From: an uncultured Rhodospirillaceae bacterium
GTDB lineage: Bacteria; Pseudomonadota; Alphaproteobacteria; MPNO01
NCBI GenBank assembly: GCA_937916005.1
Contig: CALGIA010000111.1
Coordinates: forward strand, 1 to 59,177
DNA length: 59,177 nt
Direction of reading: 5' to 3'
Program-made: the position numbers and the translations under genes
The notes under the pieces: generated by a model
The model's database searches: none
Told to the model about the DNA's origin: nothing
The model's input: the letters and a program-made list of their open reading frames with translations, nothing else
Shown: positions 1 through 39,969 of the stretch, one piece after another
Numbering within the stretch: position 1 is the stretch's first letter
Layout: the number at the start of each line of letters is the position of its first letter

Positions 1-53
<53 letters not shown>

Positions 54-16326: not shown

Positions 16327-16343
16327 GGATATTCACTGAAATG

Positions 16344-16380
16344 AAAAACGGGGCGGCGCTTGATGCGCCGCCCCGTTTTC
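16344..16380. terminator. bidirectional intrinsic terminator between convergent genes
   Basis: AAAAACGGGGCGGCGC-TTGAT-GCGCCGCCCCGTTTTC is a perfect GC-rich stem flanked by an A-run and a T-run. It sits between the stop at 16326 (+) and the stop at 16398 (-). Confidence 0.78.
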
Positions 16381-16397
16381 GATTCCAGCCGGTGGGA

Positions 16398-39279: not shown

Positions 39280-39356
39280 GCGCCCGTAGCTCAGTTGGAT
39301 AGAGTGCTGGCCTCCGAAGCCAGAAGTCACAGGTTCGAATCCTGTCGGGCGCACCA
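39280..39356 (+). tRNA. tRNA-Arg (anticodon CCG)
   Basis: GCGCCCGTAGCTCAGTTGGATAGAGTGCTGGCCTCCGAAGCCAGAAGTCACAGGTTCGAATCCTGTCGGGCGCACCA. Acceptor GCGCCCG/CGGGCGC, anticodon stem CTGGC/GCCAG with loop CUCCGAA, T-arm GGTTCGAATCC, and an encoded CCA. Confidence 0.95.
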
Positions 39357-39551
39357 TTTTTCCAACCTTTTCAGGCTTTGTGCCAGCGTTTTTCAAACTT
39401 TTGTTCGCTATTTGGCCTCTTCGCCGCATTACGGTTCAGTTGACAGGAAAGAAAAATCGACAATTGAACCAATGACTGTGAAGGAAGAGATGTTTTCCTG
39501 CGCGGATGTCGATCGTGAGATCGAACGATTGACGGACGAAATCAAGCTCTT

Positions 39552-39814
39552 ATACCAAGGAGCGCTGATGAAGGCTCATAGAGACGGCTTTTCAAGGTTT
39601 TCGGTTAGGAGCGCGTGGCGTGGCGATACGGTGTATCGGAAGACGCGCGCGACGACATCCGAAAGCCTTGAAAAGCCGCCGTTCCGGTCGCCTCCGCGCC
39701 CCGCCGGAGGTCGTCGTGAAACCTTACCGATGCACCGCATCGCCTGCGGTTCCGCTCCTACCCGGCGGGGCGCGGAGGCGATCTCTATGGGTCTTCATCA
39801 GCGCTCCTTGGTAT
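39552..39814. repeat. 263-nt nested inverted-repeat element (MITE/RIME-like mosaic repeat or highly structured RNA)
   Basis: The outer arm 39552-39584 pairs with 39782-39814 (33 bp). Inner palindrome A is 39585-39604/39659-39678 (20 bp), extended by 39611-16/39643-48 and 39624-29/39633-38. A 9-nt linker follows. Inner palindrome B is 39688-39707/39762-39781 (20 bp, perfect). TTA direct repeats lie at 39550-52 and 39814-16. Confidence 0.85.
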
Positions 39815-39969
39815 TAGACCAACAGGTGGTTTCGTTGCATCAGGCCGCGCACCCGGGCGACCATGAAATGCGGTTCCGCCGTGATCACGCGCTTGGCCAT
39901 CAGATCATTGATTTTGACGACCGCGCTCTTGCGCTCGCTGGTGGACGAGACCGGTTGGTGTAGTCGCAT
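39814..39969 (-). pseudogene. possible truncated CBS-domain gene fragment (51 codons)
   Basis: The small ORF MRLHQPVSSTSERKSAVVKINDLMAKRVITAEPHFMVARVRGLMQRNHLLV* matches the first half of a CBS motif (hhDhM...VIThxP...h..A..hM....h). Third-position GC is about 80% by hand count, against about 62% for the opposite-strand frame. It stops at the TAA that abuts the repeat element. Confidence 0.35.

Follow-up and report, generated by a model that had tools for sequence, protein, structure and literature searches.

Correia elements (CREE) of Neisseria and the enterobacterial ERIC/IRU repeats are bacterial MITEs of about 100-155 nt with long terminal inverted repeats. REPINs are inverted doublets of REPs that are mobilised by RAYT; their units measure 20-40 nt and carry an invariant GTAG, and the RAYT gene is flanked by REPs. 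The rhizobial RIME repeats span about 108-122 bp. A TNA target of the kind described below presumably resembles that of the IS1031 and IS427 groups of the IS5 family and of the Tourist MITEs derived from PIF/Harbinger. We analysed a 263-nt palindromic element at 39552-39814 of a 59,177-nt stretch of DNA from an uncultured Rhodospirillaceae bacterium, the whole of which is called the window here. Most probably it is a copy of a transposable element that is not autonomous, i.e. a MITE, whose family is without a match in the libraries compared. The family consists of previously unannotated small, non-coding MITE-like repeats that occur in many copies in uncultured bacteria and keep a Y-shaped fold to an unusual degree.

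The geometry of the window copy had been read from the letters in an earlier note on this DNA. Every coordinate given there for the stems P1, P2 and P3, the linker and the TTA on both sides was reproduced base for base, and an independent repeat search of the window returned identical arms (Table 1). The terminal stem P1 comprises 33 pairs, of which only G39574-T39792 and T39576-G39790 are not Watson-Crick. P2, the outer stem of module 1, has 20 pairs with T39598-G39665 as the sole wobble, and P3, the outer stem of module 2, is perfect in 20/20 pairs. The window copy is well preserved, with three G·T pairs and nothing else. A second copy was not present in the 59-kb window, where the element is single-copy.

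Table 1. Features of the window copy and its immediate context.
Feature	Position	Strand	Remarks
tRNA-Arg(CCG), context	39280..39356	+	195 nt upstream of the element
Left flanking TTA, putative 3-bp target-site duplication	39550..39552	.	A39552 also pairs with T39814
Left terminal inverted repeat, P1 5' arm, ATACCAAGGAGCGCTGATGAAGGCTCATAGAGA	39552..39584	+	tip TACCAA near-invariant in the main family
Hairpin module 1, 94 nt, sense on +	39585..39678	+	20-bp outer stem 39585-39604/39659-39678
Module 1 motifs TAGGAGCG, GGCGATACGGTGTATCGG and CGACGAC	39606-13, 39622-39 and 39650-56	+	conserved
Module 1 interior: middle stem and apical 6-bp hairpin with 3-nt loop	39611-16/39643-48 and 39624-29/39633-38	+	no imperfect pair
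Central linker CCGTTCCGG	39679..39687	.	centre of the whole palindrome; 3-bp mini-hairpin
Hairpin module 2, 94 nt, sense on -	39688..39781	-	inverted paralogue of module 1
Module 2 outer stem, 20 bp	39688-39707/39762-39781		sequence unrelated to module 1 outer stem
Right terminal inverted repeat, P1 3' arm	39782..39814	-	
Right flanking TTA, putative target-site duplication	39814..39816	.	equals the TAA stop of the minus-strand ORF 39814-39969

The minimum free energy structure calculated with RNAfold was the three-way junction on both strands. The plus strand folded with -184.1 kcal/mol, compared with a mean of -104.5 for 200 shuffles (z = -14.4), and the minus strand with -169.6 kcal/mol (z = -14.1); on either strand 0/200 shuffles were as good. 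Thus the fold strength of the element is far above chance expectation.

Copies elsewhere were collected with a 21-base core pattern, GGAGCG-N8-GGCGATNCGGNGNATCGG, which derives from the two inner hairpins and is common to both modules. The strict pattern matched 87 metagenome stretches, about 75 of them with the same kind of element. Among the loci collected, an nhmmer profile yielded full-length copies at 35 distinct insertion sites (37 listed rows); most of the partial copies that it found stop at the end of a contig, the few others being truncated within one. A six-frame peptide query led to a second copy, 85% identical, on the JGI contig L018. Assembly WLWD01 holds at least 6 copies (two on L021, the others on L045, L059, L077 and L090), with a mutual identity of 86-95% and flanks that are unrelated, and assembly WLWI01 holds at least 4. 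The view of the element as a MITE or mosaic repeat, put forward in the earlier note, was therefore borne out to the extent that its family is dispersed in many copies whose termini are conserved and whose flanks differ. Copies are built in the order TWA, 33-bp terminal repeat starting TACCAAG…, 94-nt module, short linker, inverted paralogous 94-nt module, terminal repeat and TWA. The mean pairwise identity of the aligned full copies was 75%; of 32 such copies 24 were 263 nt long, 6 were 262 or 264 nt and two carried deletions. The hosts appear to be uncultured, G+C-rich, alphaproteobacteria-like lineages.

Searches of reference collections gave chance matches at most. The 19-nt tip, searched exactly in 185,579 representative genomes, had 4 single chance matches, one of them a Shine-Dalgarno plus ATG region. 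BLASTN of the window copy and of the family consensus against 72,556 plasmids, a collection that takes in Rhizobium and Agrobacterium records, produced no significant match (E <= 0.01), and the terminal repeats of two subfamilies met chance matches only among these plasmids. In viral contigs the core pattern had no match, and a looser pattern had one chance match in a coding region. The comparison with Rfam that had been proposed was equally fruitless, with nothing at the gathering score and a single chance miRNA match (E = 4.6) up to E <= 10. A literature search found no description of the element family.

The open frame of the element, compared with 1.84 billion representative proteins, returned 163 clusters at 50% identity (P0123-P0271), nearly all of them short ORFs called through an element copy. 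These spurious 'hypothetical proteins' of 80-130 residues start at the ATG after AAGGAG in the terminal repeat. A protein-coding reading was rejected: although many gene callers place an ORF across the element, most copies have a broken frame. In 18/32 copies stops interrupt the only frame that is open in the window copy, and copies of 262 and 264 nt exist. Thus no meaning attaches to the preservation of the flanking frame by a length of 88 codons, to which the earlier note had drawn attention.

The short-read contigs of the window locus (L005, L006, L008, L009, L013 and L014, from ENA, NCBI and Logan) all end inside or next to the element; breaks inside the element are the expected behaviour of a repeat or palindrome. 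On contig L033 a perfect palindrome running past a copy is a fold-back assembly artefact. On L051 a full copy is abutted by an isolated, inverted piece of the terminal repeat (23 nt, 1040-1062), which results in a perfect 50-nt palindrome around TTA and puts AAGGAG-N8-ATG ahead of a minus-strand ORF continuing into a panC-like gene.

Conservation of the fold was assessed in the 32 full copies with the window structure as the reference. Standard pairs were present in 92.7% of 3,500 pair cells, compared with 81.2% after the columns had been shuffled and 34-40% after the partners had been slid, cells in this count and in the wobble count below not being independent events. In 62/110 pairs both sides had changed, and 0/500 shuffles reached any covariation measure. 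The stems are kept by compensatory change. Covariation was seen in P1, where 21 of the 33 pairs had changed on both sides and 95.4% of cells were paired, in the two outer stems, in the middle stems, in the apical hairpins and in the 3-bp hairpin of the linker, the third pair of which is GC in 19 copies and CG in 11. The three long stems contain 3-10 non-Watson-Crick pairs per copy, which is what neutral decay after insertion would give.

The distribution of the wobbles was examined by reading each module on its own sense strand, GGAGCG…GGCGATGCGG. In the inner stems G·T outnumbered A·C by 38 vs 3 in module 1 and by 45 vs 3 in module 2; the corresponding values for the outer stems were 22 vs 11 and 31 vs 13. 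Columns at which G·T occurred in at least 4 distinct copies numbered 5 in module 1 and 9 in module 2 (10 distinct positions), and A·C never occurred in more than 3 distinct copies at any column of either module. P1 was without strand bias (24 vs 20). Each module retains its wobbles on one strand only, namely the one reading inward (5' to 3') from the closer terminus, i.e. on the plus strand in the left half of the window copy and on the minus strand in the right half. The earlier hint at selection on a plus-strand RNA was thus half right: the wobbles favor the plus strand in module 1, the minus strand in module 2 and neither strand in P1. Because wobbles are tolerated on the inward strand only, the pattern indicates a state of mirror polarity in which the DNA or RNA is single-stranded. 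It may also be due to inherited polymorphism or to a mirror-image mutational bias, e.g. by convergent read-through transcription.

The two modules align without gaps when module 1 is read on the plus and module 2 on the minus strand, i.e. they are inverted paralogues. Both contain TAGGAGCG, GGCGAT(R)CGGTG(Y)ATCGG and CGACGAC, and the R/Y difference between them is compensatory (CGATAC…GTATCG vs CGATGC…GCATCG). The 20-bp outer and the 7-8-bp middle stems are unrelated in sequence between the modules, each being complementary to itself. GTAG stands ahead of the inner hairpin in most copies of module 2; it is not conserved in module 1, which has a conserved NWAGGAG instead. The element, with two inverted-paralogue halves on either side of a 9-nt centre, is therefore over its full 263 nt an old palindrome centred on the linker. 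It forms a three-way junction instead of a rod because the stems of the two modules have diverged from each other.

Some copies differ in the arrangement of these parts. Compared with all other copies, L096 (657-919) and L104 (4133-4395) have the inner 54 nt of module 2 turned round, with the arms of the 20-bp stem unmoved, which is a DNA-level flip-flop inversion between hairpin arms. L047 (1783-2032) and L098 (198-439) contain a relative of 242-250 nt that combines one GGAGCG-type module with a different second hairpin and has unrelated terminal repeats (GTACTGCCTT.CGTAATTACGG) and TAA/TTA flanks. This relative suggests an exchange of modules between repeat families.

At the ends of the main family the tips TACCAA/TTGGTA are near-invariant, and the inner part of the terminal repeat varies with compensation. 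The 3-mers outside TACC…GGTA (TAA, TTA, TCA) were identical at 18/35 distinct sites, where permutations led to an expectation of 10.9 (P=0.004), and inverted flanks were found at only 8 sites; about 40% of the sites are without identical flanks. Hence direct TWA repeats are in excess of chance, in agreement with the TTA bracket that had been read as a target-site duplication in the window. A 2-bp TA duplication at an ATAT target fits the flank data too. The empty site would read …AAGCTCTTAGACCAAC… under a 3-bp TTA duplication and …CTCTTATATTAGACC… under a TA duplication.

In some subfamilies that have the module core, the terminal repeats are unrelated and start with GAGCGTGAGAAAG…, GAGCGGTTCCGAAC…, GGAGCTGTCCTGAG… or GTACTGCCTT…. 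These subfamilies are TNA-flanked as well (L081 TCA/TCA, L098 TAA/TAA). The tips of family and subfamilies include TACCAAG…CTTGGTA, GAGCGGTTCC… and GGAGCTGTCC…. Gathering the family with a core-based pattern inflates the conservation of the core relative to that of the terminal repeats.

The flanking TAA or TGA ends an ORF of at least 40 codons reading into the element in 18/36 copies and an ORF of at least 88 codons in 10/36. This stop-codon habit shows no preference for side or orientation, and the window copy follows it. Copies would often lie exactly on stops since TAA serves as a stop codon and these G+C-rich genomes have few A+T-rich triplets.

Signals within the terminal repeat were considered and rejected. 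The positions of an inward GATAAT-like promoter covary with the other arm, the window copy has GATGAA there, and a scan found no promoter- or terminator-like site in or beside the window copy. A hammerhead-like CTGATGA in P1 sits within the helix and is not conserved among copies.

In the window the spacer between tRNA-Arg and the element (39357-39551, 195 nt) has a G+C content of 44%, compared with 60% window-wide. On the other side the right-hand TTA supplies the TAA stop of an ORF of 51 codons, beyond which rhodanese and OsmC genes follow on the minus strand. No transposase, reverse transcriptase or other mobility gene adjoins the window copy. A retron msr/msd was dismissed, the neighbours being a hydrolase, tRNA-Arg, rhodanese and OsmC genes with no reverse transcriptase nearby. 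Relatives of a neighbouring protein carry the source names Rhodospirillaceae or Alphaproteobacteria MAGs. Those with 74-76% protein identity are without the tRNA and the rhodanese gene at the corresponding position, i.e. the stretch downstream of the hydrolase gene is variable. Elsewhere in the window a 24-nt G+C-rich inverted repeat (16336-16388; 88% complementary, 5-nt loop, then a T-run) lies at a gene junction and resembles an intrinsic terminator, and a partial tRNA is found at the window edge (1-53, minus strand; Rfam RF00005, 31.6 bits).

Taken together, the element has the properties of a MITE: it is short (263 nt) and without coding capacity, it is bounded by 33-bp terminal inverted repeats, it occurs in many dispersed copies with different flanks, and the 3-mers at 18/35 sites qualify as target-site duplications, the 2-bp TA reading being possible as well. 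In the proposed mechanism a transposase encoded elsewhere in the genome would recognise the ends of the element and act in trans. It would excise or copy the element and insert it at T-W-A with duplication of the three bases. Insertion on the stop codon of a gene would regenerate the stop, in the window the TAA of the 51-codon ORF. We infer that the transposase is of the DDE type and that the subterminal hairpins are needed for mobilisation. The hairpins, the constant length and the polar wobbles suggest that the ends are handled as a folded single strand at some step.

A partner for this mechanism was looked for in several places. There was no autonomous IS with matching terminal repeats near the copies or in the plasmids, and the IS5- or IS630-like origin envisaged in the earlier note was accordingly not shown. 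No protein family recurred beside the copies, and the ORFs fused to copies were without transposase domains. An empty site, named as the proof of insertion, was not found for any copy by look-ups of the proteins of flanking genes or among the DNA compared; in P0011 and P0009, the relatives with 74-76% protein identity, synteny is lost at the element locus, and other contigs break within the element. Thus we infer the mobility of the element rather than demonstrate it. What counts against a MITE is that the inner core is common to subfamilies with unrelated terminal repeats, the reverse of the usual situation, in a comparison that is biased by a search that had used the core. Likewise, strand-polar G·T pairs are not predicted by plain double-strand cut-and-paste.

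The latter observations are accommodated by a REPIN-like selfish element, in which the two inverted hairpin modules are the functional units. A RAYT-like HUH/Y1 transposase or a hairpin-binding protein would recognise hairpins of single-stranded DNA, each on its inward strand, and P1 would be a structural stem and not a transposase-binding repeat. The inverted paralogy of the modules, their conserved core and freely covarying stems, the presence of the core in subfamilies with unrelated P1, the recurrent G·T at 5 and 9 columns where A·C never recurs, and the GTAG before the inner hairpin of module 2 are in line with this view. Yet REPINs have neither conserved tips nor an excess of direct-repeat flanks, GTAG is confined to module 2 with NWAGGAG in its place in module 1, no Y1/HUH or other recurrent gene lies beside the copies, and modules of 94 nt far exceed the length of a REP. 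We therefore regard a REPIN-like element as unlikely. A related idea, doubtful in our judgement and nevertheless worth stating, is that the conserved unit is the 94-nt module, present twice in mirror orientation, and not the terminal repeat, and that a hairpin-recognising enzyme or host factor reads the module inward as a single strand of DNA or RNA. If true, the family would represent a new class of structure-dependent mobile element between MITEs and REPINs, and the three-way junction itself would be selected, with the module stems kept different so that no rod forms.

The polar wobbles can also be explained at the level of RNA. Read-through would produce transcripts of copies at the 3' ends of genes, the module that the polymerase reaches first would always be in the sense direction whichever way the element is inserted, and a stable hairpin would protect, process (by RNase III/E) or tune the upstream mRNA like REP and Correia elements do, mobility still being by transposition. 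The position of copies at stop codons on either side without orientation preference and the conserved three- or four-way fold with module stems that are kept different, disfavoring a simple rod, agree with such a function. However, a read-through transcript would also carry the antisense module and the second arm of P1, the 3-10 unrepaired mismatches per copy are as expected for neutral decay, and neither the promoter and terminator scan of the window copy nor Rfam at E <= 10 provided a genuine match. A mainly RNA-level element thus seems rather improbable to us. Finally, the second copy is read through at the 3' end of the ORF of P0001, a protein with DEDD_Tnp_IS110 and Transposase_20 domains, which raised the question of whether the element is the non-coding (bridge/seek RNA) end of an IS110/IS1111 IS and the window copy a remnant that has lost the transposase. 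No relative of the P0001 transposase occurs at other loci, and in L018 the element is split by the IS (1153-2143): with 1152 joined directly to 2144 the left end again reads TAA-TACCAACCTGCACGG, as seen in L087. Because an intact left end is restored, the IS is an insertion into the terminal repeat of the element, and we rejected the bridge-RNA reading as highly improbable. The IS in L018 (JGI 3300060026) is a 991-nt IS110-family remnant in which P0001 has internal deletions; it has the subterminal repeats TAATTCC/GGAATTA and sits between TAATAC and CAACCTG of the left terminal repeat. The repeat family seems to be a target of this site-specific IS110-family IS. Overall, we favor the view that the element is a MITE.

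The family is of practical relevance for annotation, as it is widespread in metagenomes, breaks short-read assemblies and yields false hypothetical proteins of 80-130 residues. A family model would clean annotation and help to close MAGs of uncultured alphaproteobacteria-like lineages. Biologically, the family illustrates with unusual clarity how a selfish repeat can retain a complex fold, as shown by 62 covarying pairs, near-constant length and polar wobbles. The polar wobbles and the fold point to a single-stranded step in the life cycle and offer a handle for finding the mobilising enzyme. Furthermore, the family seems to be a natural target of an IS from the IS110 family, whose members insert site-specifically.

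Among the described systems the rhizobial RIME1 and RIME2 resemble the element as intergenic mosaics of two large palindromes in alphaproteobacteria. Yet neither the window copy nor the consensus matched any of the plasmids significantly, the Rhizobium and Agrobacterium records included, and the RIME-like relationship that had been suggested thus found no support. With REPINs the element shares two inverted hairpin units, compensatory change and the character of a non-autonomous selfish replicator, but REPINs are without terminal inverted repeats and without target duplication. IS5-derived MITEs (IS1031/IS427; Tourist/PIF-Harbinger) have the same 3-bp T-N-A direct repeat around terminal inverted repeats, and some subfamily tips (GAGCGGTTCCG…, GGAGCTGTCC…) look IS5-like; in contrast to these MITEs no parent IS was found and no transposase lies near the copies, so that we treat the assignment as a lead. 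Like the Correia and ERIC elements, the family is small, non-coding, dispersed in multiple copies and bounded by long inverted repeats, has short target duplications rich in A+T, forms a long hairpin when single-stranded and is frequent at gene ends. It differs from them by its length of 263 nt vs about 100-155 nt, by TWA instead of TA flanks, by a lack of sequence similarity, by its apparently alphaproteobacteria-like hosts, and by two internal 94-nt modules with a conserved core that form a three-way junction and not a rod.
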